IMG/VR virus record: IMGVR_UViG_3300031853_000009
Location: 32,001 to 96,000 of that record
DNA from: a virus
Lineage: Duplodnaviria > Caudoviricetes
Reading direction: 5' to 3' (one strand)
Length of the DNA stretch: 64,000 nucleotides
Below, piece after piece: positions 31,794 through 64,000 of this stretch (the first letter of the stretch is position 1; each line of letters begins with the position of its first letter). Position numbers and translations under genes: made by a program. A model generated the notes under the pieces. It saw only the letters and a program-made list of their open reading frames with translations. It did no database searches and had not been told where the DNA came from.

Positions 31794-32332
31794 CCTCCTG
31801 ACGGAGCCTGTTCATTTGGTAAAACTTCCATGAACCTAATTGCGTTTATAATGTATAAAGCATCATTTTCATACTGATCAAAGTTCTTAACAAGAGTGTA
31901 CTCAAGGGCTGTATCCTGATGCCTAAACATGACCGTATATTCAAATGCAGTGGTTGTAGTATTAGTAGAAGAGTTTCTAGTTTCAAAGGTTAGAGTCATT
32001 TTTAGACCAGTAATATCTCTCATCGCTACCAGAATTTTCATATCCCCTCTATCAATCCAAGCCATATCATTATGCCCTACTAAGGTGATATGCCTTCCCT
32101 TCTTCTTTTTACTCTCTTGAATAAGAAAGTTACCCTCTACGGAATATTCATAGGCTTGAGCTACTGGGTCCCAAGAGAACTCATCTTGCCATATAAGCTC
32201 TTTAGGTAAATACACTGTATTATTATTACCTCCCAGCTCTGAGTAGGTTCCATTAGCTACGAGTTTATAATAATAGGCATCATGCCCAGCCATCTGCCTT
32301 CTTGTTGTAAAATCTGCGTCTCTCCAACTCAT
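31790..32332 (-). CDS. Distal tail (Dit-like) protein
   Basis: Directly after TMP; LPKELIWQDEFSW..GRHITL. Confidence 0.6.
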   Translation of the reverse strand: MSWRDADFTTRRQMAGHDAYYYKLVANGTYSELGGNNNTVYLPKELIWQDEFSWDPVAQAYEYSVEGNFLIQESKKKKGRHITLVGHNDMAWIDRGDMKILVAMRDITGLKMTLTFETRNSSTNTTTTAFEYTVMFRHQDTALEYTLVKNFDQYENDALYIINAIRFMEVLPNEQAPSGG

Positions 32333-35300
32333 ATCATACCCATCCGTGCTCTATCCATTGCGAACATAAAGGAATCTATAGTATCCTTTTCCCCTGTCAA
32401 TTCACCAATATGGGTATTATTCAAGGTTAAATCAAGAGCATAAACTGTCTTGTTCATTATTTTGTCTATAGCGCTTTCTTGTATCGGTGTACTCGCTCCT
32501 ACCATGCCGCCAGTAGCAAAAGCAGGTACTCTGAGGTTATTAAGGCTTTGCATAAAGTTTACGCCAAAGGTACGAACAGCCTTAGCTGACATAACAAACT
32601 CATTCGGAGACAAAAGAGACAAGACAGAATCAGTGTTAGCTTTAGCCCCTCTAGTGAAGGGAACTAAACCACCAGTAGCAAACTTAAATACACTACGCAT
32701 TCTCTTTATAATCTCTTCAAGAGAAGAGAGTGACAGTTTATCTAACTCTCTTGTACTCTGGGTCTGCGGTACACTCGCCGTAGCGATGGCTTCAGCTTTA
32801 CTCTTTCTAGCTGCGTTTATGGAAGCTGCCATCGCCTCTTTTGCGCTGCTGACAACTTGCGCAGTGTTATTCTTCAAAAGTCTGAGACGGTCAGAGTGCT
32901 GAACATTCGCCTGAGCAATGCTCTCCTGATTAGCCTCTTTCAACTCAGAAGTGCTCTTATCGTACTCTGCGTTTTCTTGCTGTACAAAGTTATCATAATC
33001 TTGTTTCAATTCAGCGAGTTTTTCTTTATGGGAAGTCTCTCTTTCATCTATAGCCTTCTTTCTTTCTATCAAGACCTCTTTTCTTTCTTCCTCTGCTTTC
33101 TGATTAGCAGCATTAAACTCTTCAGTCAGTTTTTTAATCTCTTTTGTGGCCTTGGTATCAGGATTATCCTCATCTTTCGCTTTCAAGTATTCATTCCTGG
33201 CTTGCTCAAGAGGAATAGTATAGTCAGAGTATAGATGCTGGAAGAGATAATTCACATAAGGAACATTCTGCTCAGGTGGAAGCTCTTGATAGCCACCAGT
33301 GAGCCTCTCTATAGTATCTAGATAAGCTGTCCGCCCATGTGACTTTTTAACAGACTCTAAATACTCATCTATAGCCCTATTATAATAGTCAGACTCTTTC
33401 TCTGCGCGATAATTAACATCTGACTCAGAGTAAGATGAGTCTAAACCCTTCATGTAGGTAGAAACAAGAGCCTCTATCGCACTTCTTTCAGAAGCGGTCA
33501 TCTTCTCAAGACGAGTAGCGTAAGACTGGACTTTATCTCCAGCGCTCTCTGACAGAATATCTGCGGTCTTAACTAAGCCGCCAAGATCAATTATGTAACG
33601 CTTATCTGATCCGTACTTCTGCTTTGCGTATTCCGCATGGGCTGTAATAAGTTCTTCAATACTAGCATTCTCGTGTCCAGCAAGACCTACAGGGTATTTA
33701 TCAGAGTGTAACTGATTCCTAAAGTCTTGGAGAGCGGCTTCCTTTTCTGTCAAAGTTTGTTGCTTAGAGAGTAGATCGGCTTCGTAACTTAAACGCTCCT
33801 CTTCGAGATTATCTTTAATCTCTTTTATGGAAGTGTCATAGCTCTCTTTGCGTTCCTTCTTGCTAGTTTCGTACTCTTCGTCTTCCTTCGTGTACTTTTT
33901 CTCATCGGCGTACACTTTCTCATCGTACTCAGCATTTTCTTCTCGTACACTCTTATCGTATTCAGTTCTCTTTTCTTGAAGCCTCCTATTATGCTCGCTA
34001 TTAAGACGGCTGACTTCTTCCGTGTACTGTCTATGAAGCTCTGCGAGATTTTGCTGAAGCTCTTCAGAGAGAACAGTAATTTGATTCCTTTCATCTCTCA
34101 AAGCTCTAGCAATAGTTGTGTTGCCCGTCGCCTGTGCTCTAGCAATGGATTTAGAGTACTCGTCAGCTATCGCTTGAGCTTGCTGAGCATTCAAAGCGGC
34201 ATTTTGTGGTGTACCACCTGTGACAAAATGACTGATACCTGCTTCTATATTCTTTGCCATCATTCCGATAGCTTGCAGACCTATAGGAGAAGTAAACTCA
34301 TTCGCTGCTTGTTCGAGCTTTGTACTAACATCCAGATTATTCACGTTCAAATTTATATCGGAACCTGCAAAAAGTTCCTCTAGCTTACGCTTAGTAGAAC
34401 GAATGAGTCCACCATTGGCATATTTCTGGACAAAACCTACAGTGCTGCCAACGATGCCGCCATTGGCGAACATCTTGGTAATGCTGGCAGGGATTTGTAG
34501 ATTATTGAGTTTATACATAAAGTCCACGCCGTACTTTTTGACTGCTGCGGCTCTATGCACAAACTCATTCTTCATAAGAAGAGCAGGTACGTCATCTTTA
34601 GTGCCTGACCCCTTGTTAATAAACCTAGACTGTAACCTCGGATACTTAGAAAGGATAAGACCGCCTGCCGCTTTTTGCTGTGTTGAAGATTCAGTAGCCA
34701 CATTTGTTTCTTGTACTACCACATCAACTCGTATTTTATTCGGAATCTCTTTAATCTTCTGTATAATCTGAGTGAGTCCTGCTGTAGCCCTTGTAGTATC
34801 TGCCTGTACAGTCACGTCAGCCTTGAGCTTATTGAAAGAAGCTACTAACTCTGTCACCTCTTTTCCTATTTCTTCTACTCTTTCCGGGGCTACCTCTACG
34901 TCCACTTCTATAGTATCTAGGCTGTTCTTGAGAATACGAATAGCATCACTCAATGTAGTCTGTAGCGCACTTGCAATAGCATTAGCTGTACCGTCCTTAG
35001 AACCAAGCTGTTTGAGTTTATCTTCCATATCTTGACTAAAGGATGTCAATTCCTTCTTAAGTTCTTCTATCGTATTCTTATAAGCAGAGTTGATATTAGT
35101 TGCACTTTGTTCACCTGCCTTTTGCGTACCCTTGAATGTAGCTTCTAACTCTTTAAGCATGGCATCATACTGTTCTTTATCGAGACCGTACTCTTTAAGT
35201 ACCTCTTGTGCACTCTTTTTAACAGAATCATCTCCTTGTCTAGCGCTATTGACCGCCCCTTGCCATGTGCCATTTTCATTTGTAGGCAAACCTGCTTCTC

Positions 35301-38300
35301 TTTGACCAGCAGGAACAGTCTTCTCTTGTGCTTTTAAGACTTCTCCCTTTGATATTTGTTCGTTATAAACTGACATTAACTCTTTAGCGAGTTCAATCTG
35401 TTCACGAATCTTCTCAGCCTCTTTCTCAAGATGACTCATAGCTAACTCATGTCTGCCATTTTCAGCAAGAAGAGCTTGTTCTGCTGAAGACTTAAGAACT
35501 TCTAGTCGGCGCTTATCTTGTTTTAACTCTCTCTGGAATTTTTCCTCCTCTTCCTTAAGTTCTATCTGCTTCTGAGCTTCAAGAATTTGTTTTCTGAGGT
35601 CAAAGGCTTTTTGTATATCTCCCTTATACTTACCGGGTTTTTCGGACCCCATTAGAGTACTGGTAGCAGACTGCAACTGATTAAACAAGGCTTCAAGTTC
35701 TTGCTTATCCCCTTCTTCTACAGCCGCCGCGATACTTCCACTGGCCTTCTTAATCCTTTTTTCTGCTCTTTGTGTTTTCTTTTTTTGGAGCTTTTTGCTG
35801 TTACCCTTAGCCTCTATAGTATCCATAGTATCTTGCCTTTCGTCTTCAAGGGCAAGAGCTTTAGCATCGTACTTCTTAATAATATCTAATTTCTTCTTTT
35901 CGTACTCTTCTTTTTTCTTAAGCATAGTCTGCTCAAGAGTTTCTCTTTTCTCAGCAGACTTAATAGCGATAGAGTCAACCTTATCATAATGCTTTCGTAC
36001 TTCTTCTGCTACTTTGCTCGTAGAGGAGAAAACAGTATCGTTTTCTAAATCAAAACCTTCCGCAATAAGTTTCTTTCTCTTCTCTACTTCTTTTTCGTAC
36101 TCAGCTGTAATAGCTGCCTGCTGATTCGCATTAAAGTCGCCAAGTGGATTAAATTTGAAAGATTCCCCTTGCAGCTCTTTAAGTTTTTTCTCGGCTTCAT
36201 ATACAGCTTTAGTCTGAGCCTCTATTCCTTGGCGTGCAGCTTTCACAGCGTCATAAGTACTCTTTTCTATTTCTTCTTCAAGCCTTACGATCTGCTGAAT
36301 GTTTTGTGCTTCATCTAACTGTTTGAGAGCTGCTATTTGCTCTTTGCGAGATTTTATAATCTCATCATGGTATTTAACAGAAATCTCAGCCTTCTTAAGT
36401 TCAGCCTTTTCGTGAGAGACGACACCTTTTGACTCAAGAGCAGTTACTTCATGCAAAGCCTTCTCTTGCCGATGTTTTCTTTGTTCATTGGCCTTTTTTT
36501 CTTGATTAGCAATAGCATCTCCTTGCTCCTTAGCTAAAAAGAAAGCAGCCTTGGCGTTTTTCTGGTCAAGCTCATGTTGCGCACGATAGCCTTCTTCTAC
36601 TATCGATTTTTTCATTTCTTGAATCTTTTCTAGGGCTTTCTTAGTTTCTTCATTGTCTGCCCTATAGCTATCTTTTATCTCCTTCTCGTAGCGTAAAATG
36701 TCAGCAAGTCTGGCAGCCATATACCTAACATGAGCTTCTTGCTCTTTAGCTCGTGCCTCTTTGAAAGCAAGACCTATTCTGCCTTCACTCTGTTTATAGG
36801 CGTCCTCTTGAATTTGGATGCGATTCAACTCGGACTGAAGAATAGTATCTCTACGCTTCTTATTCTCCTTCTCTTCTTTTGTGATTTCCTCCATGCGAGT
36901 ACTGATAGGAATAGCGGACCTAACCACTTCTTTAAGTCTCTCTGCCGTATCCTCTCTTAGTTTGCTCACATCAGCCTCAGCCCCTATCTCAATCTGCACT
37001 TTTTTCTTTGAATTATCTTTAGCAAGTCGATCTATTTCTGCATTGTACTCATTCCAGTTTATACGGTTTGCATTGTAACGATTCTTGACATCTTCCGATG
37101 CGGCTTCATAAGCCGAGTCACTTGCTTTAGCGCCCTCTTTTTCTCTAGTCCGTACCCTTTCTATTGCCCTATTGGCACTCTGTACAACACCAATTCCGCG
37201 CATCAAAGCAGCTATACCGATAGTCGTATTACGCTGTTTAAGAAACTCTTCGTTTACTTTTTCAAGCATTGAATTTAGCATACGGTACTGCTGGGTTAGC
37301 TCAGCAATCTTTTTACTTCTCTCTTTTTCATCCTCTATACTCTCTGCATCTTTTAGCTTATTATTATATTCTTCTCGCAGAGTAATAAGAGCTTGGTTTA
37401 ACTTAATAAAACCAGCAAATGCCTCTACAGCGGCTTTTTTATCCTCTTGGCTTATCGTTACTTTACCAGATTTACTATTTTTAGTGGCGCTCTCAATAGC
37501 AACAGCGGTCTCCTCTATCTGTTCTCTAAGCGCTTTAGTATTTACCGATATTTTACTTATTCTGTCTTTCAATGTATTAAAAGCCTGATCGTCTCCACCT
37601 CCCAATTCATCAAAAATAGATACTACTCCTTCTCCTTTTATATTTACATTCTTTATAGCTTCTTGTAAGTCGTGTGCCAATACACCAGAAAACGCCTTAC
37701 TCATATTAGCTTCTTGCAAAGACTTAAACTGTTCTTCTATTGCCTGAAGTTCTTCTGTCTTTAACTCACGATTAGCTTCCGCTAATTTCATAACCTGTTC
37801 TATAGGCGTATGTAGAGAAATCTTGCCTAGACTCAACATATTGTTGATGTATTTTTCGGCTCCTTGTGTAATCGTCGCGAAACGATCTCTAGCCTTAGTG
37901 TACTCTTCCATACTCCCATACATCTTTGACACAGAAACTTCGCCTATAGAAATATCACTCAATAGCTGCTTTAACTGAGAATAAGTTAAATCAGCATAAT
38001 CCCATTCTCCAGTAAAATCATCGAGCACTACTTTAGTGGCGTATTTTTCCTTAGCTTCAGTTGTAAGAGGGCCGCCCATCCAACCTCCAGTTTTTGTACT
38101 TTTTCTAAACAGCTTACCGGCTGTACTCAACTCTTGGACAGCTTGTACCACAGCAATTTCTCTCAACTTCTGCCTATAAGCATCAAGAGCAGCGCCCCCG
38201 TCAGTAAAAGCGTCGTTAGTTTCGTTGATAGCAGCCACTAATGCTTGAAATTCCGTCTCCGCCCCTAATACCGCTCCACCGTTATCCCTTATAGCCGCAA

Positions 38301-41300
38301 ATACCTCTTTAATCGCATTTGCGTACTCTTCAGTTCCAGCTTGTAGTTTAGTTATTTTATCTAAAGCGTCTGTGACACTTTTTGACTGATTATTGATTTT
38401 ATCTAATTGCTCACTGACTTTCTGGAGGTTGTGTTCAAGTTTCTCAACTGTCACTGTAAGAAGGTCAAAAGCAGTAAGCGCCAATAGAGGAAGGAGAGCT
38501 ATAGATAGAGTTCCAACTACACTGCCTAAAGTTCTGAGTGCCATCTCAAGCCTAGTAACACCGGGAACAACTTGACTTACTTGCTTAAGGGACATAGCTG
38601 TGTGAGTTAAACCTGTATTTACAGGCTTTATAAACTGCGGAGCTTGTACATAAGACCTACGCAATGCTTCAAAATCTTTCGCAGTAGCGGTAGTTGTGTA
38701 CTTTAAGTCGCTAAAATTCTGCTTTAGACCACTTATGCGTTTAGTAAAAGTTGGGAATAAAGTAACAAGATAAGAGACAGCAGCAGTTAAAGGACTAAAC
38801 ATAACTCCGCCTATCGCCCTCATAGCCCATAGTGCCTTAAAGGCTACAGTCAGGGAACCTACAGCTGCAACTAAAGCAATTAAGCGAATCGCAAATTTAC
38901 CGGGTATGGACTCATTCAAAGAATTTATAAAGTTAATAGCACCAGATAATACATTAACAAAACCACTAAGTATAGCCGTTAGGCCATTTTCTCCTAAAGT
39001 AACAGCTAACAACTGCGCTCTATCAGTAAGGTTCTTCCAACGAACATACAAACCTTCTTGCTGTTTCGCAGCCATTTCAGCAGCAGAGCCAACCCTAGTG
39101 ACAGAAGAATACAGCCTGTCATAGTCTTTGATGCCGTTAGTCAGAGACAAAACAGCCGTAGCGCCGCGTTTACCAAAGACATCCAAAGCTACTTGCGAGT
39201 CACGAACTACTACACCTAGATTAGAAAGAACGTCCCTAAAACTATTAACACGAGGGTCGAGGTCTGTTAAAGAGACACCCACCGTTGCTGCTGCTTCCGC
39301 TAGCTTTTTAGATGGGCTTAAAATCGTACTTAAGACGTTACGAAGACCAGTACCAATAGTAGAGGCTTTTTGACCGCTATTAGCAAGGAGCATCATAGCC
39401 ACGGCTGACTCTTCAAAAGAGATATTAGCATCTCTTGCTACCGGGCCTATGTAGTTAAAAGCTGTCCTAATCTTATCCATAGTGAGCTTGGATTTATTGA
39501 CAGCATTAGCAAACACGTCAGATACTCTCGCTGAGTTATTGGATTCAATCCCAAATACGACCATCGCAGAAGTAACCAAATCCACAACAGTGCGCATATC
39601 AGTCAAAGTACCAGTAGCCAAGTCAGAGATACTCTGCATCATTTGCATACTTTGCCCTGCGGTAAAACCAGCCTGTGCGATCATAGTCATACCGTCAGCT
39701 ACTTCTTGAGCAGAAAATTTAGTGGTGCTGGCGATCTCTTTTACAGTCACTCCCAGCTTAGCTATGGTCATGTCAGTAGCACCGGTGATGCTTTGTACAT
39801 TATACATAGCCTTCTCAAACTCTTTGATATTCTCAGGAATAGACTGTATCCAGTTAGTAATCTGATTAAAGACGTTACTAATTACTCTATACTGTAAAAA
39901 CGTTTTTACACGCTCTTGGAATTTAGTAAGAGGAGCGTCCACATCTTGCACGCTCTTGCCAAAGCGAGCAAAAACAGAAGTCGTATTATTTAACCTTCCT
40001 TCTACTGCACGGATAGCGTGTTCACAAACAACCAGTTTAGCAGTTAAGGCGTCTATAGCGGTTTGAGGCACATTCAAATTCAGAGTGTGCATAGTTTTGA
40101 TGAGATCAAGAAACTTCTTAGAGAAGTGCTCAATGTTCACCTTATTGATTGCTTCTATACCTTTAGCAAAACCAGCAAGATTGGAAGGCAAAGTAATCCC
40201 GGTAAACTTGCTGAGAATAGTAGCAAGGTCGCTAAGGTCTTTCGCCAGATTCGGACTAATTAACTCTCCGGTAGATTTCTTTGAAAATGAATCTAAAGAG
40301 TGCAAACCATCAGCAAAATTCTTGAGCTGTGGCGCTCTGAATCCGTTAATTACTTCAAGACCGCGTTTAAGAGTCTCCATATTTTGAGGAAGCTGCTGGT
40401 TTACAGTGGCTATATCATTCAGCCTCTTAAGACCATCCCCCAAATTCTTTATGTTAGGAATATCAAAGTTCTTACCTTCAAAACCTTGGAGGGCAGTGAT
40501 AATAGCGTTTATATTCCTCCGCATATTGTTTATATGAACACTGCCTTCCCTATTTCCGTGCTGTAAAGAAATCTCATTAAGAGTTTTGAAGCCTTTTGCA
40601 AGACTATCCAAATTAGGTAATGTTATTGGCTTACCTTTGTTAGTTAGCGCATATAGATCGTTAAAAGACTTAAGCGCATCCTTAATCTCTTTTATGTTAT
40701 TTCTAAAGGCTAAAGTATCTAAATCTTTCGGCTTAAAAGTATTTAGAGAATTATAAGCATCAGCCAGATTTTTAAGATTAGGAAGTCTAACCTTAGAAAG
40801 TTGCTCAGAATGCTCACTTAAAGCAGAAGCAATAGCTGCTATATTAGCCTTAAAGCGTTCTCCAACTTTAGTACTATCTGTATCTTTAGGAATCTTGTTT
40901 AGAATAGTAAAAGCATCGGCTATATTCTTAAGGTTAGGAAGTTTAACTACTCCTGTCTCTTTTAGCTGAGTAATCGCATCCTTTATAACCTTTACATTTT
41001 CATTTACGGCGAATACAGTTTTCTTAGTGCTAATGATAGAAAACTCCCGCAAAGTATTCTCATTAAAGATTCTAAAAGCGTCAGCGATATTCTTTACATT
41101 AGGCAGCCTTACTTTATCGAAATCTTTTAACTGATCAAGTGCATCTTTTATAGCAATAAAGTTATCGTTAAACTTGCCAGTAATGACTTTATCAGACTTA
41201 GGTATAGTATCAAGAATCCTAAAGGCTTCTGCTATATTCTTAAGATTTGGAAATTTAATATCCTGTAATTCAGCATCTCTCTTAAATGCACGCAGTTGTT

Positions 41301-44300
41301 CCCATACTTTATTCAAATTTTGAACAAAGTTATTATTCTTGTCATCTTTAACTTCTATATTGTTGAGGATTCTAAAAGCATCAGCTACATTTTTAATGTT
41401 AGGGAGTTTAACGTCCTTTAGAGTTTCATTAGCAGACTGAAAGGCTCTAGCTATTTCGTCAACATAATGTTTTACTCTTGTAGGAGTACCTTGAGCATCA
41501 GGGACTGTCTCAAGTTTTTCTATACTGTTAAGAGTCTTAAAAGCATCAGAGACATTTTTAAGATTAGGAATTTTTATAGTACTAAAATCAGTTGTAGCAA
41601 AGGCATCTTTCAGTGCTCTGAGATTCTGAGCTACTCTAGTTACACGCCCTTCTCCTTGTATATTAACACGCTCAAGGACTTCGCTATTAAGGGTCTTAAA
41701 AGCATCAGCAATATTCTTTACGTTAGGTAGCTTAATACTATCCCACTTAAACTGTGGGTCAGTAAGAACATCATACAGAGCTTTGATGTTTTCTTTAATA
41801 CGGGTAACTCTATTTATAGCATTGCCGTAATCGTCCACTCCTCCGCCTCTAATAACATTCAAGAACTCATTGTTAAATGTCTTAAAGGCATCAGTGATGT
41901 TTTTAAGATTAGGAATCTTATTAACTTCTTTTCCACCGAGAGCTTGAAGTTTAGTTACTGCCTCTGCGACTGCATCGATGTTTTTAGTTATGTTGGAAAT
42001 AAACTCTCCTTTCCCTTTCTCTTTAGTCCAAGTATTAGAACCTGCAAGGACGTTTTCATTAAGAACCTTAAAAGCCTCTGCTATACCTTTAAGATTAGGA
42101 ATCTTGGGTGCGCCTTCTGCATTTAGCTCTTGTAATTTTTTAATATTCTTTTTAAGTTCACTTATATTAGTGTCTATATTGGAGACAAACTTCCCAGACT
42201 TCTTGTTTTTAGTCCAAGTACTACTACCAAAAAGAACACTTTCATTCAATACTCTAAAAGCATCAGAGACATTTTTAAGGTTAGGGATTCCAGGCATTTC
42301 TTTACCACCGAGAGCCTGAAGCTCGGTAATAATATGCCTAATAGTAGCGAGGTTATTAAGCCAATTAGGATTTATTACATTCCCAAAATCATCAACAGTG
42401 CTACCTTTGATAAAAGTGTCATTTAGGACCTTAAAGGCATCAGTAACATTCTTAAGATTCGGGATACTCGGAGGTTTAACACCATCAGTTACTTTATTAA
42501 GTTTTTGTAAACCTTCGATGGCTTCTTTAATTTTTTTGATGTTCTCATCAAAGTTATATACAGTCTTAGCTTTACCCTTCTTATCTACTTCAGAGTATCC
42601 TTTAAGAATATCTTCATTAAAAGTCTTAAAAGCCTTAACTACATTAGAGAGATTAGGAATCTTAGGTGCGTCCTTCCCGCCAAGAGACTGAAGTTCCGTA
42701 ATAATATGCTTAACAGCGGCAAGGTTGTTAAGCATATTAGAGTATTGATTACCAAAGTCATCAGTAAAAGTACCCTTAAGAGTAGTATCGTTAAAAGTCT
42801 TAAAAGCAGTAGTTATATTAGAAAGATTAGGAATCCTATTGACATCTTTACCACCAAGAGACTGAAGTTCAGTAATAATGTGCTTAATAGTAGCTAGATT
42901 ATTAAGCAGATTAGAATGCTGACTACCGAAGTCGTCGGTAAAAGTACCCTTAAGCGCGGTGTCATTAAAAGTCTTAAAGGCAGTGGTTATATTGGAGAGA
43001 TTAGGAATCTTATTGACATCCTTACCACCAAGAGCTTGAAGCTCCTTAATAACGTGCTTAATAGCAGCAAGGTTATCGAGCATATTAGAATACTGATTAC
43101 CATAATTATCAGTAAATGCCCCTTTGAGAGTACTCTCATTAAATACCTTAAAAGCAGTAGTTACACTGGAGAGGTTAGGAATATTGACCTTGCCCACTTC
43201 AGACAATTTAAGAAGAGCATCCTTCAAGTACTCAGCGTTCTGCTGTACTCTCGTAATAGTCTGTCCTGTCCAATTACCTTTACCGTCAAAGAACCCTTCC
43301 TTTCTAATCTTCTCATTAAACGTCTTAAAGAAAGTAGTAACAGAAGAAAGGCTAGGCATAGCTCCGTCTGCCTTTTTGCCTAAAGACTGGAGCGTGGTGA
43401 TAACCGTAACAAGATGATTAAGGTTGGTCAGTATGTTCGAATACTGATTCCCGTAATCATCTGTACCCTTTCCCTTTAAGGAAGTATCATTCAGCTCCCT
43501 GAAAGCAGCCATAACCCCCTTAAGACTGGGAATCTTGGGAGCTTCTTTTGTACCAACAGATTGTAGGGCTGTATAGATAGCCTTAATAGCATCTATGTTC
43601 TCATAAATATGCCGGACGTTCTTTGGACCTCCTTCAGACAAAGAAGAGTATCCCTTGAGAACAGTCTCGTTCAATTCCTTAAAGGCTGCCATCACTCCCT
43701 TAAGGCTAGGAATCTTAGGCACATTGTCTCCACCCAGAGCCTGCAAATCTGAGATAGCTTTCTTGATAGTTTCCATGTTATTATGGAAACGATAAATAGA
43801 CTCAGACTGCAATCCGCCTTTACCCAACTTCCAAGACTCCTCTAGCTTCATAAGCGGAGAGTTCAAATCCTTAAAAGCGGTGACAATACTCTTAAGGTCA
43901 GGCATCTTAGGGGCATTGACATTCAGGTTCTGCAAGTCCTTAATAGCCTGCTTAATAATATCCATATTATTCTGAAGACGAAATACGGATTCAGAGCCTA
44001 TACCCATCTTGCCATGACGGAAGACTTCCTCAGTCTTCAGGGTAGTGTCATTCAAAACTTTGAAGGCGTCTGCTATATTCTTCAGATTAGGGATTCTGCC
44101 TTTTGAAGAATCAGAGAGGTCTCTGAGTTTATCAAGACCCCTTTTCAGCTCATCTATATTCTCTTGTATCTTTGTAGTAGTCTGTTTGGTATCAATAGAA
44201 GACTGACCACCGAGTACAGACTCGTTGAGGGTCTTAAATGCGTTAGAGATTTTAGTAAGATCAGGAGTCTTAACTCCATCTAGTTTTTTAACTGCATCTA

Positions 44301-46077
44301 CTATTGCGCTAATATGTACAGACGCAGTAGTACCCGCGTTTTCTGGAACCGCAGTGCTGAGTTTATGGATGGCGTTGGCTATACCTTGAATATTAGGAAG
44401 ACTGACTTTATCAGCACCCTTGAGTTGAGTTACAAGAGTTTTGATGCTGGTGGTCAGAGAGAGCATCTTTTCATCGCTTAAGCTGCCCGCATCTTGTAAA
44501 GCCTGAAAATCCTTAATTCCTTTAGTGAGACCAGCGATATTGGGGAGTTTTATCTCTTGCTTAGGTAAATTTTCGGTGATAGCTGTTAAGGAAGAGCTAA
44601 TTATATTAGATACCTTTTTCGCACTGACCGCTGAAGTACTGAGAGAAAGCAGACCAGATGCAAACTTGGTAAGATCGGGAACATTGATGCTTGCGATCTC
44701 TCTTAGCTTATTAGGAATACTTCTGATATTGTGGTTAATGTTCTGGAGGTGTTGCTCATCCAGACGCATACTGCCAAGATCGTGTATGCCTTTTACAAAA
44801 GAACTTAGATTGGAAGGAACCTTTATTTGATCCCATGCTCCTTCACTCGCGCTGGTTTTAAGTTCAGCTACTCTAGCAGTAAGAGCCTGAATCTTTGTGT
44901 TCATACCAGAGAAAGAAGTCTTCCCTAGTATCTCAAACCCCCTAAAGAAATTACCGATGTTAGGAAGCTGTACTCCATGTAGTCCTTTTAAGGAATCTTT
45001 GAAAGTATTTACATTGTCGGCAACCCTCTGAAAGTCATACTCACCAGAACTCAATAGCCTTAGATTCTTAGTCAAAGAACCTAGCTGAGGCATTTTTAGT
45101 TGTGAAAGTTTACCAAACTCTTCTACAAGAGTAGTAGCTATATGGCGAAGATTTTCAGGCTTTAAGTTCTCATAGGTCTTGTCCACCATGCCGAGACCTT
45201 GCATGAGACCTTTTATATTAGGAACTTTAACAGTCCTGAGGTCCTCAAATGCTTCTTTAATCCCGGCGTTGATCTGCTTTATATTTTTCCAGTCAACAGA
45301 GTTATAGTCAAACTGACCTAATTCTTGTAAGGCTTTAGTAAACTTTGAGAAGTCAACAGGCTCTGAATGGGCGAGCAGAGAAGCAGCTAGTGTAATCTGA
45401 CGGACTCTATACAGAAAGGTATCGCTTTGCTTCAAGCCAATAAGGCTACGCATACCGTCTGCAAGGTTACTCAGAGGATTCTTACCTTCTCCAAAGTCTT
45501 TGATAGAGCGCAGAGCGTAACCTAATCTAGAGATAGCCTCAATAGAAGTAAGATTAGCTCCTAGATTAAGTTCAGATAGAGCAGCGCTTATACTTCTGAG
45601 GTTAGCAGTATTTACACTCTCCATTTTCTGAAGACCGCCAAGTAAATCATTAACTTGCCTAGCGGTCTCAGCGCCACTAAATTTAGATTGAGCCTCTCCC
45701 ATACGCTTCATAGCGTCGGCAAAGGCTGAAGTGTTCTGTATTAAAGAAGGATCAAGACCAGCTTTAAGCCTCTCTACAGCAGCAGCGAAATTATTTAACT
45801 TCTGGTCATTGAGTGAATCAAGGGCTTTGCTCACTTTGTCAAAGCCCGTGTCTTTAATGGCTGCGATGGCGGTTTTTACTTCGCCGAGTGCAGAAACGAG
45901 ATGAGAACTGGAGAAGGTGGTCTTACCAGTACCGCCACTTATAGCATCTATGGCGGTCTGTAGCTCTTTTACCTTAGTGGTAACTTTAGAAACATTCTCC
46001 GCAAGAGCCTTTAACTGTTTGATATGCTCCCCGGATACATCTATCTTAATAGATACTTTCTGAGTATTATCTGCCAT
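32329..46077 (-). CDS. Tape measure protein (4582 aa, TP901-like core)
   Basis: Follows tail chaperones; TTKFSAQEVA..AQAGF..AGT/IGTGLRN core; coiled coils; C-terminal FATGG motifs. Confidence 0.92.
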   Translation of the reverse strand: MADNTQKVSIKIDVSGEHIKQLKALAENVSKVTTKVKELQTAIDAISGGTGKTTFSSSHLVSALGEVKTAIAAIKDTGFDKVSKALDSLNDQKLNNFAAAVERLKAGLDPSLIQNTSAFADAMKRMGEAQSKFSGAETARQVNDLLGGLQKMESVNTANLRSISAALSELNLGANLTSIEAISRLGYALRSIKDFGEGKNPLSNLADGMRSLIGLKQSDTFLYRVRQITLAASLLAHSEPVDFSKFTKALQELGQFDYNSVDWKNIKQINAGIKEAFEDLRTVKVPNIKGLMQGLGMVDKTYENLKPENLRHIATTLVEEFGKLSQLKMPQLGSLTKNLRLLSSGEYDFQRVADNVNTFKDSLKGLHGVQLPNIGNFFRGFEILGKTSFSGMNTKIQALTARVAELKTSASEGAWDQIKVPSNLSSFVKGIHDLGSMRLDEQHLQNINHNIRSIPNKLREIASINVPDLTKFASGLLSLSTSAVSAKKVSNIISSSLTAITENLPKQEIKLPNIAGLTKGIKDFQALQDAGSLSDEKMLSLTTSIKTLVTQLKGADKVSLPNIQGIANAIHKLSTAVPENAGTTASVHISAIVDAVKKLDGVKTPDLTKISNAFKTLNESVLGGQSSIDTKQTTTKIQENIDELKRGLDKLRDLSDSSKGRIPNLKNIADAFKVLNDTTLKTEEVFRHGKMGIGSESVFRLQNNMDIIKQAIKDLQNLNVNAPKMPDLKSIVTAFKDLNSPLMKLEESWKLGKGGLQSESIYRFHNNMETIKKAISDLQALGGDNVPKIPSLKGVMAAFKELNETVLKGYSSLSEGGPKNVRHIYENIDAIKAIYTALQSVGTKEAPKIPSLKGVMAAFRELNDTSLKGKGTDDYGNQYSNILTNLNHLVTVITTLQSLGKKADGAMPSLSSVTTFFKTFNEKIRKEGFFDGKGNWTGQTITRVQQNAEYLKDALLKLSEVGKVNIPNLSSVTTAFKVFNESTLKGAFTDNYGNQYSNMLDNLAAIKHVIKELQALGGKDVNKIPNLSNITTAFKTFNDTALKGTFTDDFGSQHSNLLNNLATIKHIITELQSLGGKDVNRIPNLSNITTAFKTFNDTTLKGTFTDDFGNQYSNMLNNLAAVKHIITELQSLGGKDAPKIPNLSNVVKAFKTFNEDILKGYSEVDKKGKAKTVYNFDENIKKIKEAIEGLQKLNKVTDGVKPPSIPNLKNVTDAFKVLNDTFIKGSTVDDFGNVINPNWLNNLATIRHIITELQALGGKEMPGIPNLKNVSDAFRVLNESVLFGSSTWTKNKKSGKFVSNIDTNISELKKNIKKLQELNAEGAPKIPNLKGIAEAFKVLNENVLAGSNTWTKEKGKGEFISNITKNIDAVAEAVTKLQALGGKEVNKIPNLKNITDAFKTFNNEFLNVIRGGGVDDYGNAINRVTRIKENIKALYDVLTDPQFKWDSIKLPNVKNIADAFKTLNSEVLERVNIQGEGRVTRVAQNLRALKDAFATTDFSTIKIPNLKNVSDAFKTLNSIEKLETVPDAQGTPTRVKHYVDEIARAFQSANETLKDVKLPNIKNVADAFRILNNIEVKDDKNNNFVQNLNKVWEQLRAFKRDAELQDIKFPNLKNIAEAFRILDTIPKSDKVITGKFNDNFIAIKDALDQLKDFDKVRLPNVKNIADAFRIFNENTLREFSIISTKKTVFAVNENVKVIKDAITQLKETGVVKLPNLKNIADAFTILNKIPKDTDSTKVGERFKANIAAIASALSEHSEQLSKVRLPNLKNLADAYNSLNTFKPKDLDTLAFRNNIKEIKDALKSFNDLYALTNKGKPITLPNLDSLAKGFKTLNEISLQHGNREGSVHINNMRRNINAIITALQGFEGKNFDIPNIKNLGDGLKRLNDIATVNQQLPQNMETLKRGLEVINGFRAPQLKNFADGLHSLDSFSKKSTGELISPNLAKDLSDLATILSKFTGITLPSNLAGFAKGIEAINKVNIEHFSKKFLDLIKTMHTLNLNVPQTAIDALTAKLVVCEHAIRAVEGRLNNTTSVFARFGKSVQDVDAPLTKFQERVKTFLQYRVISNVFNQITNWIQSIPENIKEFEKAMYNVQSITGATDMTIAKLGVTVKEIASTTKFSAQEVADGMTMIAQAGFTAGQSMQMMQSISDLATGTLTDMRTVVDLVTSAMVVFGIESNNSARVSDVFANAVNKSKLTMDKIRTAFNYIGPVARDANISFEESAVAMMLLANSGQKASTIGTGLRNVLSTILSPSKKLAEAAATVGVSLTDLDPRVNSFRDVLSNLGVVVRDSQVALDVFGKRGATAVLSLTNGIKDYDRLYSSVTRVGSAAEMAAKQQEGLYVRWKNLTDRAQLLAVTLGENGLTAILSGFVNVLSGAINFINSLNESIPGKFAIRLIALVAAVGSLTVAFKALWAMRAIGGVMFSPLTAAVSYLVTLFPTFTKRISGLKQNFSDLKYTTTATAKDFEALRRSYVQAPQFIKPVNTGLTHTAMSLKQVSQVVPGVTRLEMALRTLGSVVGTLSIALLPLLALTAFDLLTVTVEKLEHNLQKVSEQLDKINNQSKSVTDALDKITKLQAGTEEYANAIKEVFAAIRDNGGAVLGAETEFQALVAAINETNDAFTDGGAALDAYRQKLREIAVVQAVQELSTAGKLFRKSTKTGGWMGGPLTTEAKEKYATKVVLDDFTGEWDYADLTYSQLKQLLSDISIGEVSVSKMYGSMEEYTKARDRFATITQGAEKYINNMLSLGKISLHTPIEQVMKLAEANRELKTEELQAIEEQFKSLQEANMSKAFSGVLAHDLQEAIKNVNIKGEGVVSIFDELGGGDDQAFNTLKDRISKISVNTKALREQIEETAVAIESATKNSKSGKVTISQEDKKAAVEAFAGFIKLNQALITLREEYNNKLKDAESIEDEKERSKKIAELTQQYRMLNSMLEKVNEEFLKQRNTTIGIAALMRGIGVVQSANRAIERVRTREKEGAKASDSAYEAASEDVKNRYNANRINWNEYNAEIDRLAKDNSKKKVQIEIGAEADVSKLREDTAERLKEVVRSAIPISTRMEEITKEEKENKKRRDTILQSELNRIQIQEDAYKQSEGRIGLAFKEARAKEQEAHVRYMAARLADILRYEKEIKDSYRADNEETKKALEKIQEMKKSIVEEGYRAQHELDQKNAKAAFFLAKEQGDAIANQEKKANEQRKHRQEKALHEVTALESKGVVSHEKAELKKAEISVKYHDEIIKSRKEQIAALKQLDEAQNIQQIVRLEEEIEKSTYDAVKAARQGIEAQTKAVYEAEKKLKELQGESFKFNPLGDFNANQQAAITAEYEKEVEKRKKLIAEGFDLENDTVFSSTSKVAEEVRKHYDKVDSIAIKSAEKRETLEQTMLKKKEEYEKKKLDIIKKYDAKALALEDERQDTMDTIEAKGNSKKLQKKKTQRAEKRIKKASGSIAAAVEEGDKQELEALFNQLQSATSTLMGSEKPGKYKGDIQKAFDLRKQILEAQKQIELKEEEEKFQRELKQDKRRLEVLKSSAEQALLAENGRHELAMSHLEKEAEKIREQIELAKELMSVYNEQISKGEVLKAQEKTVPAGQREAGLPTNENGTWQGAVNSARQGDDSVKKSAQEVLKEYGLDKEQYDAMLKELEATFKGTQKAGEQSATNINSAYKNTIEELKKELTSFSQDMEDKLKQLGSKDGTANAIASALQTTLSDAIRILKNSLDTIEVDVEVAPERVEEIGKEVTELVASFNKLKADVTVQADTTRATAGLTQIIQKIKEIPNKIRVDVVVQETNVATESSTQQKAAGGLILSKYPRLQSRFINKGSGTKDDVPALLMKNEFVHRAAAVKKYGVDFMYKLNNLQIPASITKMFANGGIVGSTVGFVQKYANGGLIRSTKRKLEELFAGSDINLNVNNLDVSTKLEQAANEFTSPIGLQAIGMMAKNIEAGISHFVTGGTPQNAALNAQQAQAIADEYSKSIARAQATGNTTIARALRDERNQITVLSEELQQNLAELHRQYTEEVSRLNSEHNRRLQEKRTEYDKSVREENAEYDEKVYADEKKYTKEDEEYETSKKERKESYDTSIKEIKDNLEEERLSYEADLLSKQQTLTEKEAALQDFRNQLHSDKYPVGLAGHENASIEELITAHAEYAKQKYGSDKRYIIDLGGLVKTADILSESAGDKVQSYATRLEKMTASERSAIEALVSTYMKGLDSSYSESDVNYRAEKESDYYNRAIDEYLESVKKSHGRTAYLDTIERLTGGYQELPPEQNVPYVNYLFQHLYSDYTIPLEQARNEYLKAKDEDNPDTKATKEIKKLTEEFNAANQKAEEERKEVLIERKKAIDERETSHKEKLAELKQDYDNFVQQENAEYDKSTSELKEANQESIAQANVQHSDRLRLLKNNTAQVVSSAKEAMAASINAARKSKAEAIATASVPQTQSTRELDKLSLSSLEEIIKRMRSVFKFATGGLVPFTRGAKANTDSVLSLLSPNEFVMSAKAVRTFGVNFMQSLNNLRVPAFATGGMVGASTPIQESAIDKIMNKTVYALDLTLNNTHIGELTGEKDTIDSFMFAMDRARMGMI
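42651..43172 (-). repeat. Three 174-bp (58-aa) near-tandem units inside TMP repeat array
   Basis: GATTAGGAATC anchors at 42651, 42825 and 42999; IPNLSNITTAFKTFND..KGTFTDDFG.. unit. Confidence 0.85.
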
Positions 46078-60530: not shown

Positions 60531-61418
60531 TCATAGCGGAGGCTCTAATCTTCGCTTCTGGTCAAGAAGATCGAGCTGCTTTTCTTTCTCTTCCTTCGCT
60601 ATGCTCTGCGCTTCCCATTCCTGTATTGATAGAGTATTAGGTATAACCATAACCCCGTGTAGCCCTTGCATAGTACTCTTCGTTTCTACTTTATCACTAT
60701 ACCCTAACTTATTCATTGTCAAGTACTTAAACAAGACATTATTAAATCTGTCATTCTCAAGATTCTGCACCCCTTTAGTCAAGAAAAACGCTTCATACAT
60801 TGTCTGCCCTATCTCATACGCTTCTTTCATCTCTTCATAATCATGTACCCATCGCATCAGAGTACTTATGCTAATTTGAAACAAAGAAGCTATCTCTACA
60901 TCACTCTTCCCTTCCTTGCTTAATTTAATGTACAAGAGAGGATGTTTCCCTACATCGAATTTAGAACTAATGCCTCGACTGCTTTCATTAAGGGTAATGC
61001 TATAGTCTCTTTGCTCTCCTCGATCTTGACGTTCATGGCACTCTTTGACTCTAAAGCCTTCATATTGATCTTCCTTGCTTCTATCTTCGTCTTTCGATTT
61101 ACTTGCGTAATGCTCTCTTATAGTGTCCAATCGAGTCATTCCTACCATCCTCGAATGTACCGCACAAAGACTACTTCCTCTACAAGCATAACTTTTACAT
61201 CTCTCTCCTAAAGCAGATACATAAGCACAAAGCGAAGACTCTAAAGCAGAATCTTCGCTAGAACCGACACTGTAATCTTCTCGATCTCCTTTATAACGTT
61301 CTTGGCATTCTTTGACTCCAAAACCTTCGCTTTGATCTCTTCGAGGTCTTAGTAAAATTTTAGGTTTTGCTACTTTAGGCTTTTTTAATGTCTTCATATC
61401 GGTCCTCCTATAACTCAA
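60531..61418 (-). CDS. Terminase small subunit-like HTH protein with repetitive N-terminal extension
   Basis: LSKEGKSDVEIASLFQISISTLMRW..EMKEAYEIG..N.LGYSDKVE; upstream of terL. Confidence 0.65.
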   Translation of the reverse strand: MSYRRTDMKTLKKPKVAKPKILLRPRRDQSEGFGVKECQERYKGDREDYSVGSSEDSALESSLCAYVSALGERCKSYACRGSSLCAVHSRMVGMTRLDTIREHYASKSKDEDRSKEDQYEGFRVKECHERQDRGEQRDYSITLNESSRGISSKFDVGKHPLLYIKLSKEGKSDVEIASLFQISISTLMRWVHDYEEMKEAYEIGQTMYEAFFLTKGVQNLENDRFNNVLFKYLTMNKLGYSDKVETKSTMQGLHGVMVIPNTLSIQEWEAQSIAKEEKEKQLDLLDQKRRLEPPL

Positions 61419-61553
61419 CGCAGTGCTTTACTATATCGGTAAAATTTTCTATTTTACACATATATGTATATATTATTTCTTAGCTTATATCGATGCTATG
61501 ACCTATTATGACACTTTTTGACAATAATCGAATCGATGTTTTCGCAACCTACT

Positions 61554-62066
61554 TTAGCTTTGATTTCTGACCTTTTCTCCGCTATACTCTGCGATGTCTT
61601 GAATATCTATAGAAGCAGAATTAAACATCGTCTCGGAGAGCAGCTTAAGACATTTCTTATATTTAATTCGCTCAGGTCGGTCTAAAACTTCTTGTACTAT
61701 ACAAGAGTTAATATAGTCAGTAAGCCGAGTCTTCGATTCTAAAACAGAACCTTCGATAAGAGATACATTATGTGATACATTGTGAAGATTCTTATTTTGA
61801 CATTCTTTGACTCTAAAACTCTCGCTTCGATTTTCTTGATCTTTTTTGCTTTCGCTTTGACCTTCGATATATCGATTTTCAACTTTTTTCTTGCGCGGTG
61901 TTTCATATCGAGTTAAACAGCGTGATATGAACTTACGCACTTCCCGATGTACCTTGCTGTAGGTCATCTCCTCATCAGGAAAACAAAGTATATACCATAG
62001 TGCGAGGAGGTCATCTCGAATCCGTACTGAAGTATTTCTATGTCCGAGTCTTATCGTCATCTTCAT
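61554..62066 (-). CDS. Ribbon-helix-helix-like DNA-binding protein
   Basis: MKMTIRLGHRNTSVRIRDDLLALW resembles RHH_4-type N-terminus; RBS AAGGAG. Confidence 0.5.
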   Translation of the reverse strand: MKMTIRLGHRNTSVRIRDDLLALWYILCFPDEEMTYSKVHREVRKFISRCLTRYETPRKKKVENRYIEGQSESKKDQENRSESFRVKECQNKNLHNVSHNVSLIEGSVLESKTRLTDYINSCIVQEVLDRPERIKYKKCLKLLSETMFNSASIDIQDIAEYSGEKVRNQS

Positions 62067-62163
62067 TTCGATTCTCCTTTTATCGAGTTTATATCATTTC
62101 CGCAGTTTTAAGTTGCGTTTTAATCATTACGCAGCATATCGTCAAGATAAGCAAAGAGAGTCA

Positions 62164-62329
62164 TACAGCGTGCTTTGTACTCACGAGAATCGATTTTTCG
62201 TCTATGATGAGTAAAGAGCATCGTGTCATAGCAAGAGGCATCGTGTCATAGCAAGGGGCATCGTGTCATAGCAAGGGGCATCGTACAGCGCATTTTGTAC
62301 TCACGAGAATCGATTTTTCGTCTATGATG
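62164..62329. repeat. Two ~45-bp direct repeats (120-bp spacing) enclosing three 20-bp tandem repeats
   Basis: TTTGTACTCACGAGAATCGATTTTTCGTCTATGATG x2; GCATCGTGTCATAGCAAGRG x3 (62218-62284). Confidence 0.9.
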
Positions 62330-62574
62330 CGAAGGACACACCCTCGACGGCAGGGAAACGGCCCCATCTGGTCCAGAAAACTGCTATCATATAAGAGAAG
62401 TCAAGGAAAAATTGCTATGAATGTAGAGCAATCAGGCCAATAACTGCAAAGGGAAATGAAAAACTGCAATAAAACTGCAATAAAGTGTTACAATTTGACA
62501 CAAAAACAACAGAGATTGACAAGAAAACTGCAAGGAGTCAGGAAAAAATTACTATTTTTACTGCTATTTTTCTC

Positions 62575-62603
62575 TTGACAAGATGCAAGAAACCCTGTAA
62601 AAT
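62575..62603 (+). promoter_or_regulatory. sigma70-like promoter
   Basis: TTGACA-17bp-TAAAAT. Confidence 0.6.
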
Positions 62604-62661
62604 AAAGGGAAAATCAGTGAAAATTGTAATAGAGATGCAATTAAGTAAAAAGGCAGGATGA

Positions 62662-62820
62662 CCACCTATAGAGACAGCCTCTGGATGACCAGCTCTGGAT
62701 GCCCACCTATAGAGACAGCCTCTGGATGACCAGCTCTGGATGCCCACCTATAGAGACAGCCTCTGGATGACCAGCTCTGGATGCCCACCTATAGAGACAG
62801 CCTCTGGATGACCAGCTCTG
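62662..62820. repeat. 41-bp perfect tandem repeat x3.9
   Basis: CCACCTATAGAGACAGCCTCTGGATGACCAGCTCTGGATGC at 62662, 62703, 62744 and 62785. Confidence 0.95.
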
Positions 62821-63130
62821 TAAAGTTAGTTAATACTCTTTGACACTTTTGGACACTTTTTAGGGGTAATTTGTTGACAATAAATGACACTTTTGGACAC
62901 ATTTTTGTGACACTTTTTGACGGTTTTAGTGGTCTGGCTTTATCTGGTACTCCAGAGCATCAAAAGTGAAAATTAAAATCAAAAAAATCACTTGCTGGAA
63001 TACTAGGAAAATCGGGCATCTACGAACTTTTTGAAAGATTTTTCCGTTTTGAAAGTGGAAAAAGTGTCAAGTTGGCATGATGCTGGCAATAAAAGGAGGC
63101 AAAGCCAAAAACAAACACGGAGGGACGACA

Positions 63131-63237
63131 GAAAAAAACAAAAAAAGCTTGACGACAGACCGAAAACTTGTTAAGGTCTGGTCATGCTGAAAACGAGGCG
63201 AAACAAGAGACGCCTCCCCGATCCTTGAAAACTTGAG
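63131..63237 (+). promoter_or_regulatory. rrn-like early promoter with hairpin and boxA-like element
   Basis: A-tracts, TTGACG-17bp-TAAGGT (extended TG), GAGGCG/CGCCTC hairpin, GATCCTTGAAAACTTGA. Confidence 0.6.
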
Positions 63238-63332
63238 ATTTGCCGTGTACTACTCTTGACGCTTATCGGTACGCTGTATCGTTACCAGCGAGCGGCTATG
63301 GCACACGACAAATCTCAATACATAGCACGACA

Positions 63333-63625
63333 GCTTGCCAGCTTGCGTACCTTTTCCCATGTAGCAGATATGGATTGCTCGCTCGATGATATGCGCCAGA
63401 GATGCGCCGAGCAGAAACGCAAATCCCTGCACCAGGGAAAAGGGAAACAAGCCGGACAAACAAGCAAAATGCCGGTAACAATGACAGGAAAACCGGCGAC
63501 AGACAGATAAACCAGCTAAACTTGGCTTTCCTCTGCAACATGGGATTGCTCGTAACCAAAGATGCGCAAAGATGCCGGTTACGAAAAGCAAATTCCCTGC
63601 TTGCAGGGAAAACAAGGAAAAGCTG
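63333..63625 (+). ncRNA. Candidate structured RNA with two homologous long hairpin domains
   Basis: Shared GGATTGCTC..ATGCGC..AGATGC..GCAAAT(T)CCCTGC with different but complementary stems. Confidence 0.6.
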
Positions 63626-63693
63626 GAAAGCACAAAACAGACAGTCTTTCTTTTGGGCAATTCCGCCCATTTTTCAACCCATTGGAGGGTATT

Positions 63694-64000
63694 ATGGAAC
63701 GCGAAAAACTTATTAACGCTCTTTCTGAAGATGGTAAGAAGGCTTTAGCTGCCGACCAACGGGCAAGCCAGCTGGCAAGGATCGAAAGTGCCGCAGGCGT
63801 CCGTTTTGGAACAGTTCAGGATATGTATGTATTCCTGAAAAATGAAAAAATCTGGCCCCACGAAGTAAGAGCAGATTCTATTTATTCCGCGTTCAAACGC
63901 GGAAAGTTCACTGGGCGGGGCTGGGCTTGCCCTAGTCCGAGTTTTGACGATTTAACACCAGAGCGTCACGTCACCTTTGCCCAGGGCGGATGGGCGACTG
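63694..64000 (+). CDS. Hypothetical early protein, 3'-truncated by window
   Basis: GGAGG RBS; MEREKLINALSEDGKK... open to window end. Confidence 0.7.
   Translation, partial: MEREKLINALSEDGKKALAADQRASQLARIESAAGVRFGTVQDMYVFLKNEKIWPHEVRADSIYSAFKRGKFTGRGWACPSPSFDDLTPERHVTFAQGGWAT

Follow-up and report, generated by a model that had tools for sequence, protein, structure and literature searches.

The phage record containing the locus is a 110,104-bp IMG/VR virus with a 96-bp terminal overlap. The window, a stretch of 64,000 nucleotides, corresponds to bases 32001-96000 of the record, so that a window coordinate is the genome coordinate minus 32000; positions below refer to the window unless marked as genome. 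The genes for the portal, the large terminase and the major capsid protein and a 4582-aa tape measure gene all lie on the minus strand, a gene set that suggests a siphovirus. Among isolated phages, the capsid finds only distant relatives. Near-identical DNA is present in one bovine-gut run, and partial relatives are spread across several cattle or gut studies. The source is an uncultured siphophage of the rumen or cattle gut, of the Firmicute type. The tape measure reading frame (32329-46077, minus strand) matches tape measure proteins only in its middle (residues 1850-3300) and at its end (residues 4315-4529), and its 4582 residues would imply an exceptionally long tail.

A non-coding gap of 1.6 kb (62067-63693) houses two structured domains, Domain 1 (D1; 63333-63465) and Domain 2 (D2; 63509-63631), both given here on the plus strand. 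One flank of the gap is the start of the minus-strand late block, which includes a small-terminase-like gene, and the other is a block of plus-strand ORFan genes that runs from 63694 past the window end. The first gene of this early block has a GGAGGG ribosome-binding site (RBS) and an ATG at 63694 (63684-64000, plus strand). It encodes a 252-aa ORFan, P0001, that extends past the window end, and a strong intrinsic terminator lies 3′ of it. A search of 5.8 billion proteins found only three homologues of P0001, at 52-56% identity, and none were added by an N-terminal-only search or an exhaustive profile search. The predicted structure of the protein was unusable (pLDDT of 40). Among 15 early proteins compared with PHROGs and Pfam there was no regulator; the hits comprised one peptidase-like match (14020-15417 of L232) and one marginal match to an unnamed family.

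The surroundings of the domains contain four families of tandem repeats: a 20-bp unit in three copies, a 41-bp unit in four copies, TGACAC boxes at a 10-bp phase and (GCGTATGTAT)n. They are located at 62210-62284, 62656-62820 and 62831-62927 and at genome 96571-96680, and possible roles for them are as origin, packaging or regulator sites. L009, one of the relatives described below, lacks the 41-bp array. In addition, a 36-nt inverted repeat with 83% complementarity (63613-63648 and genome 96797-96832) brackets the first early gene, its arms being 1148 nt apart.

Architecture and conservation of the two domains

Each domain folds as a single extended hairpin of 115-135 nt, in which ~40-45 stacked pairs are interrupted by small internal loops. 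From base to tip, the imperfect hairpin of D1 is built of outer stems, a CCTTTTCCC/GGGAAAAGG stem, a GCAG/CTGC stem, a GGATTGC/GCAAATCC stem and a variable apical stem. Common to both domains are a pyrimidine 5′ arm (CCTTTTCCC/CTTTCC) set against a purine 3′ arm (GGGAAAAGG/GGAAA), and a bulged A carried by the GGATTGC/GCAAATCC stem. The apical loop holds two direct GATGCGC words, the GCGC parts of which can form a 4-bp mini-stem. In the D1 loop, which has this GCGC/GCGC mini-stem, the two words read ATGCGC (GATGCGC in other copies), and across copies the loops read GATGCGC or GATGCGT. A linker hairpin, GCCGGT-N15-ACCGGC (63471-63497, plus strand), separates the domains.

The minimum-free-energy fold of D1 (63331-63471) has an energy of -52.8 kcal/mol and a z-score of -5.18, and that of D2 (63509-63631) has an energy of -49.2 kcal/mol and a z-score of -6.54; in neither case was any of 200 shuffles as good. 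The entire 454-nt stretch has a folding z-score of -5.4. A first-pass annotation of this DNA had listed individual pairings for both domains, and all of them are found in the respective minimum-free-energy folds. Its GCCGGT/ACCGGC hairpin between the domains likewise folds, and its view of D1 and D2 as homologues is borne out by their common architecture and 62% identity, as expected of paralogues.

At the DNA level, the window was compared with the contigs of two of the three P0001 homologues. The first, L010 (1320 nt), contains both domains and the linker immediately upstream of its P0001 homologue, with the linker stem kept and its loop variable. The second, L009 (2237 nt), contains one domain only. 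The resulting five copies (D1, D2, the L010 pair and the single L009 domain) were used to build a covariance model, under which their scores range from 61 to 121 bits, with D1 at 121 and D2 at 108 bits. Besides D1 and D2, the model found no extra copies in the searched 88% of the genome, genome 20001-32000 being left out. The folding z-scores are -5.2 to -7.1 in four of the five copies and -3.7 in the fifth.

Standard pairs fill 85% of the pair cells in the model-based alignment; sliding the partners by 1-3 columns lowers this to 32-51%. Among the five copies, which come from only three phages, seven pairs are changed on both sides, and the covariation score was reached by none of 500 shuffles. 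The upper four to five pairs of the apical stem have a different sequence in each of the five copies, and every one is complementary. When orthologous domains are compared, there are five double compensatory changes and no broken pairs in the apical stem. Apparent breaks in the outer stems are register shifts, since L010's own folds pair there. Thus, the earlier proposal that apical stems that differ yet still pair reflect selection on structure is upheld by the homologues in L009 and L010: D1 and D2 are real structures whose pairing is under selection.

Between the window and L010, the interval that runs from D1 to the RBS has 80% identity and includes fully conserved blocks of 28 and 40 nt, whereas for the adjacent early gene identity falls to 59% of nucleotides and 52% of amino acids. 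Across copies, conservation of the loop sequences is strong. Gut contigs from four runs (80% likeness) keep the 3′ arms, and their 5′ arms and apices differ. The alignment of the region with L010 contains around twenty-five 1-nt indels and a few longer ones, and such scattered indels leave no conserved ORF. No homologue of the longest antisense ORF exists among 5.8 billion proteins, and as bait it matched no contig. A conserved translated reading frame, raised at the outset as the competing account of the region, therefore does not explain it.

These comparisons also bear on whether the domains have a function at all. Recent repeats are abundant in the region and three phages are available for comparison, so that D1 and D2 might be incidental inverted duplications in a repeat-rich spacer. 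However, changes in the pairs are compensatory and leave every apical pair intact, the non-coding stretch is better conserved than the gene beside it (80% versus 59%) and blocks of 28-40 nt are perfectly conserved. We regard an absence of function as distinctly improbable.

Database searches agree with the expectation that the region belongs to no known RNA family. With Rfam 15 at a permissive threshold, the sole hit in 61000-64000 was a chance match to mir-640 elsewhere in that interval (E of 3.8), and L009 and L010 gave only sub-threshold microRNA-hairpin hits (21-28 bits, against cut-offs of 50-117). A blastn search of 62800-64000 against 50,697 phage records returned zero matches. When viral contigs were scanned with P0001 or the 18-nt motif described below, only the phage genome itself was recovered. 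A scan of metagenomes and GTDB genomes with the pattern GCAAAT-N0-1-CCCTG-N3-4-CAGGGAAAA produced ~220 hits; all those inspected, including a 110-kb contig and Acutalibacteraceae MAGs, were chance or coding matches. The D1/D2 element is novel as a family and lies outside the RNA families described in Rfam. Structured non-coding elements are known from the early control regions of phages; what is new is the architecture, in which extended hairpins in tandem hide copies of a genome-wide hairpin signal.

Predicted transcription signals around the domains

The best sigma-A-like promoter of the gap is TTGACA-17-TAAAAT (62575-62603, plus strand), with 11 of 12 consensus matches. This region is covered in the relatives' contigs and the promoter is kept in L009. 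Transcription from this site, which points toward the early genes from 1.1 kb upstream, could yield a leader longer than 1 kb with both D1 and D2 in it. A second promoter-like sequence read from the DNA, TTGACG-17-TAAGGT, has TGT just 5′ of the -10 hexamer (63149-63177, plus strand). Both of its hexamers are identical in L009, where the spacer differs, and a third relative, at a contig end from run X7, has TTGACG followed by another spacer, the 30-letter read stopping before the -10 hexamer. The D1-D2 leader most likely starts from this predicted promoter, in which case D1 would begin ~150 nt after the start.

Between this promoter and D1 there are two further signals. A GAGGCG/CGCCTC hairpin is followed by the boxA-like GATCCTTGAAAACTT (63195-63234, plus strand). 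The boxA-like 12-mer has a single exact match in the genome, but it is statistically weak, since sites within two mismatches of it number 12 over both strands. The other is TTGACG-15-TATCGT (63256-63282, plus strand), a weak consensus match that is absent from the consensus scan list; the segment 63253-63337 is ~96% conserved in a contig of run X2. The first-pass annotation had placed a strong promoter ahead of the ~450-nt stretch. That description does not suit the poor match at 63256-63282, and the part of the claim that stands is the presence of a promoter-like sequence, with the better-supported candidate at 63149-63177. In L010, a TATAAT lies 8 nt upstream of D1.

The arrangement in L009 is different. 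Its single domain lies upstream of the TTGACG-17-TAAGGT promoter and downstream of the TTGACA-17-TAAAAT promoter common to both phages, and because of this position it would be transcribed only if the far-upstream promoter is used. A fixed layout of promoter, two domains and gene is thus not general.

Between D2 and the RBS, the hairpin TGGGC-AATTCC-GCCCA is followed by TTTTT (63654-63675, plus strand) and scored as terminator-like in a scan. By its sequence it looks like a terminator or attenuator, or else a 5′-UTR module. This small GGGCAAT..GCCC hairpin with its T-run recurs 10-20 nt before the RBSs of several early genes, with copies at genome 97170-97200 and 99291-99335 and at 838-865 and 1265-1290 of L009, and it shows a compensatory change from GGGCAA/TTGCCC to GGACAA/TTGTCC.

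Promoter, structured domains and terminator-like hairpin follow one another in the right order for a stand-alone trans-acting RNA of ~400-480 nt that would end at 63654-63675 and serve as a decoy or sponge, for example for a host defence protein, an RNase or a polymerase. The strong conservation of the loop sequences suits such an RNA, and the tandem paralogous domains could be two binding sites. However, the terminator is weak, with a 5-bp stem, a hairpin of the same kind stands before other early genes that have no such domains, and L009 has one domain in a different place. A free RNA of this type is quite unlikely.

A dispersed palindrome and the strand of the element

The 3′ arms of both domains contain copies of an 18-nt palindrome, TTCCCTGCTTGCAGGGAA. 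Allowing 0-2 mismatches, it is present in 11 copies in the genome, all in a single orientation, all within genome 95593-104995 and each in a non-coding gap; nearly all precede an ORFan early gene or gene cluster. The first copy (63593-63610, plus strand) is in the 3′ arm of D2 and is paired to the 5′ arm in the fold. A degenerate copy, ATCCCTGCACCAGGGAA (a CCCTG-CAC-CAGGG variant; 63423-63439, plus strand), is in the 3′ arm of D1, and the 28-nt block around it is 100% identical in L010. As plus-strand RNA, TTCCCTGCTTGCAGGGAA forms a 7-bp stem with a G(CUUG)C tetraloop in 10 of the 11 copies (CCCUG-CUUG-CAGGG). T4 intercistronic regions have CUUCGG tetraloop hairpins, which the dispersed motif resembles as a stable, repeated tetraloop stem-loop.

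In D1 and D2 the motif is masked because its halves pair with the 5′ arm, and the extended fold is more stable by 8-9 kcal/mol than one in which the motif forms its local hairpin. Competing partners exist for other copies as well: those at genome 97536 and 102352 have an upstream partial inverted copy, and another faces a downstream 24-bp hairpin (genome 96517-96582). At genome 96721-96780, the motif is at the apex of a long hairpin. Four copies adjoin a TTGACA box or a partial inverted copy. No -10 hexamer of the sigma-70 type follows those TTGACA boxes, and no U-tract follows the motif hairpin on the plus strand, so that a classical attenuator logic is not apparent. Both TTACGAAAAG and the motif are common to the copy at genome 97131 and the 3′ arm of D2.

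Since the loop and bulge sequences shared by the 3′ arms are copies of the dispersed palindrome, the domains are tied to general early-gene control modules. This link argues against a stand-alone RNA gene, and D1 and D2 appear to be elaborate members of an early-region control repertoire rather than an isolated gene for an RNA.

The distribution of the motif is reminiscent of the PeSLs of T4-type phages. These are composite terminator/promoter motifs that mediate modular shuffling (PMC4122927), in which a terminator is paired with a sigma-70 early promoter (PMC2839356, PMC4122927). Like such cassettes, the 18-nt motif is a stable tetraloop stem-loop that stands before ORFan early genes and at shuffling boundaries. 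Unlike them, it has neither a -10 hexamer nor a U-tract, and D1 and D2 are far larger and mask the motif, for which no PeSL counterpart has been described. Observed here are the repetition before ORFans, one shuffling boundary consistent with a PeSL, and TTGACA boxes without a -10 hexamer. The boundary concerns a 98-aa early gene, which lies upstream of the P0001 homologue in L009 (877-1167) and downstream of P0001 in this phage (genome 97232-97528). That gene order breaks at the repeated motif/UTR modules is consistent with cassette shuffling.

This raises the possibility that the element works at the level of DNA, as a PeSL-like protein-binding or promoter-terminator cassette, prone to duplication and recombination, of which D1 and D2 would be elaborated inverted duplications, with the hairpin a by-product or an aid to recombination. 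The 11 same-orientation copies at ORFan early genes, four of them abutting a TTGACA box or a partial inverted copy, would be accounted for, as would the sequence that the genome 97131 copy shares with D2, a gene order that differs from that of L009 exactly at such modules and the 36-nt inverted copy of the D2 flank 1.1 kb downstream. Double-stranded binding sites, however, do not evolve as the apical stems have, changing yet staying complementary. Moreover, the changes compatible with wobble pairing favour one strand, the 5′ arms show conservation only insofar as they pair and the TTGACA boxes have no -10 hexamer of the sigma-70 type. On balance, we consider a DNA cassette rather unlikely.

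The pairing itself gives some indication of strand. The plus strand has the more negative z-score in all five copies, and single-sided changes produce six U.G pairs on the plus strand versus one A.C mismatch, which would be a wobble on the minus strand. Watson-Crick pairs dominate, with 0-3 G.U pairs of ~45 in each domain, and the minus strand folds about as well, so that stability alone cannot identify the strand. The small number of G.U pairs and the near-equal minus-strand fold also fit a DNA hairpin or a requirement on both strands. Taken together, the promoter context, the z-scores of the five copies, the wobble pairs and a tetraloop orientation that coincides with the direction of the early genes lean toward a plus-strand RNA.

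Known phage elements and a proposed role in the early leader

Structured elements of phage early regions, such as nut and put sites, RNase III sites and origin transcripts, have been highly informative about transcription and RNA processing. To our knowledge, almost all of those described come from a few model coliphages. D1 and D2 are large, conserved and covarying, have no Rfam family and belong to a phage whose early genes are all ORFans, and the 11-copy hairpin signal linked to them seems to organise the whole early region. If they act as RNA, they would give tractable access to the early-gene control of gut phages of the Firmicute type; if as DNA, they may mark the origin. The family at present numbers three phages.

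The putL and putR sites of HK022 are cis-acting, polymerase-binding antiterminator RNAs of ~70 nt, each with two short adjacent stem-loops; they suppress downstream terminators with no need of a phage protein, and one lies behind each of two promoters. D1 and D2 are like them in being paralogous, structured, non-coding and covarying between copies, and in lying, in this phage and L010, just downstream of predicted early promoters and upstream of predicted terminators. Unlike put, D1 and D2 share a single promoter region, are arranged in tandem as extended hairpins of ~125 nt each and show no likeness in sequence. Single hairpins of 115-135 nt thus depart from the put type in both size and shape.

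Lambda-type nut sites comprise a boxA and a 15-nt boxB hairpin with a GNRA-like pentaloop, and act with an N-type protein. Here, there is no boxB-like hairpin, as the motif has a CUUG loop and a 7-bp stem, and the boxA-like word at 63220-63234 is not significant by itself. As to an N-type antiterminator partner, none of the 15 early proteins matches any PHROGs or Pfam family beyond the peptidase-like and the marginal unnamed-family hits.

The RNase III signals of T7 (R0.3 and others), with sites of ~50-60 nt, and the hairpin of the lambda N leader control the stability and translation of early messages. D1 and D2 share with these sites the form of long irregular hairpins with internal loops, a place in what would be an early-mRNA leader or intercistronic region, and membership of a homologous family within one genome. 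The predicted folds provide the RNase III type of structure, at least about two turns of near-continuous double strand with an internal loop. Unlike the T7 sites, the two domains keep loop words (GAUGCGC twice and GGAUUGC/GCAAAUCC), which suggest sequence-specific recognition beyond a requirement for double-stranded RNA.

Plasmid sso elements and Frpo of the F plasmid, which are single-strand initiation signals or promoters, are imperfect hairpins 100-300 nt long that are orientation-specific and contain conserved loop words; D1 and D2 are comparable in both length and loop words. The loop word of ssoA is TAGCGT, and in Frpo the -35 and -10 hexamers are inside the hairpin stem. In D1 and D2, neither arm contains a hexamer pair at a spacing of 16-18 nt, and TAGCGT is absent, the loops reading GATGCGC or GATGCGT. 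We know of no single-stranded stage of a dsDNA siphophage beyond replication forks.

The origin of lactococcal c2-type phages is reportedly a transcribed and structured stretch of DNA, and its early transcript is said, in the title of a 2004 report by Schiemann, to be essential. It lies between PE1 and PE2, has neither an ORF nor a ribosome-binding site and supports plasmid replication (PMC7150918). An origin-of-replication element of this type, in which a structured early transcript or hairpins on displaced single-stranded DNA would prime or open the origin, is unlikely for D1 and D2, although we give it appreciable weight. The element is placed in the 1.6-kb gap between the minus-strand late and plus-strand early modules, and the domain of L009 is placed between two predicted early promoters. 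Iteron-like repeats are nearby (20 bp in three copies, 41 bp in four copies and the 10-bp-phased TGACAC boxes), and nearly pure Watson-Crick pairing suits DNA equally. As in c2-type phages (Ceduovirus), the stretch is non-coding and sits in the gap where the early and late modules of a Firmicute-type siphophage diverge. The inter-module position and the lack of an ORF are seen directly, flanking by promoters is only predicted and holds for L009, and in the window an RBS directly follows D2. On the other side, there is zero sequence similarity to c2-type origins or to any of the 50,697 phage records in the blastn search, and the phage, at five times the size, presumably encodes replication functions of its own. 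The adjacent genes are ORFans, with no origin-binding protein or replication gene among them, and the repeats could equally be packaging or regulator sites. Furthermore, 10 other early genes are preceded by the motif that the 3′ arms copy, a pattern more like gene control than origin function.

The best explanation, held tentatively and at less than even confidence, is that the first early transcription unit has a structured leader, formed by D1 and D2, that acts in cis. We infer their RNA nature, strand and cis mechanism. The domains would be part of an untranslated plus-strand leader transcribed by the host RNA polymerase from TTGACG-17-TAAGGT, from the stronger promoter 600 nt further upstream, or from both. 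Each domain would then form a coaxial stack of ~40 base pairs, with the 5′ pyrimidine arm on the 3′ purine arm and the intercistronic motif masked. The apical part, a variable pairing stem that closes a loop with two GAUGCGC words, may present a recognition surface for a protein or for RNA polymerase.

Folded in this way, the leader would set in cis the amount of transcription or of message that reaches the first early genes. It might do so by making the polymerase resistant to the hairpin-plus-U-tract before the RBS and to the strong terminator after the gene, as put and nut sites do. Alternatively, it might be a site for double-strand-specific processing or message stability, like T7 R0.3 and the RNase III site of the lambda N leader. 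The likely objects of control would be the masked motif copies, the downstream hairpin-plus-U-tract and the terminators. In favor of a leader, the terminator-like hairpin before the RBS and the strong terminator after the first gene supply something to regulate. Against it are the position of the L009 domain upstream of a conserved promoter, a copy number that is one or two, and a surrounding 1.6 kb full of tandem repeats and 10-bp-phased boxes of a kind typical of origins or packaging sites.

A more specific form of the leader reading would make it a new class of phage leader RNA. D1 and D2 would act as a structural switch that keeps two copies of the CUUG hairpin masked until a phage or host factor bound to the GAUGCGC loops unmasks them, and early-gene timing would be set through the 10 other copies, for example by loading of an antitermination or processing factor. 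We assign this version a low, if real, probability.

At genome 96460-96585, 3′ of the first early gene, the strong intrinsic terminator is followed by a motif copy and then by a perfect 24-bp hairpin with a T-rich tail. The same unit is kept in L010 (1222-1320), where the centre of the motif is AA instead of TT, and it may be a tiny sRNA unit. A second palindrome, CTGTGAC-NGT-CACAG, lies ~10 nt upstream of the TTGACA boxes that precede the motif at genome ~100690, 102340 and 104900, and a AAAAAAGGGGATATAGGGGGG box occurs five times between genome 99150 and 102470.
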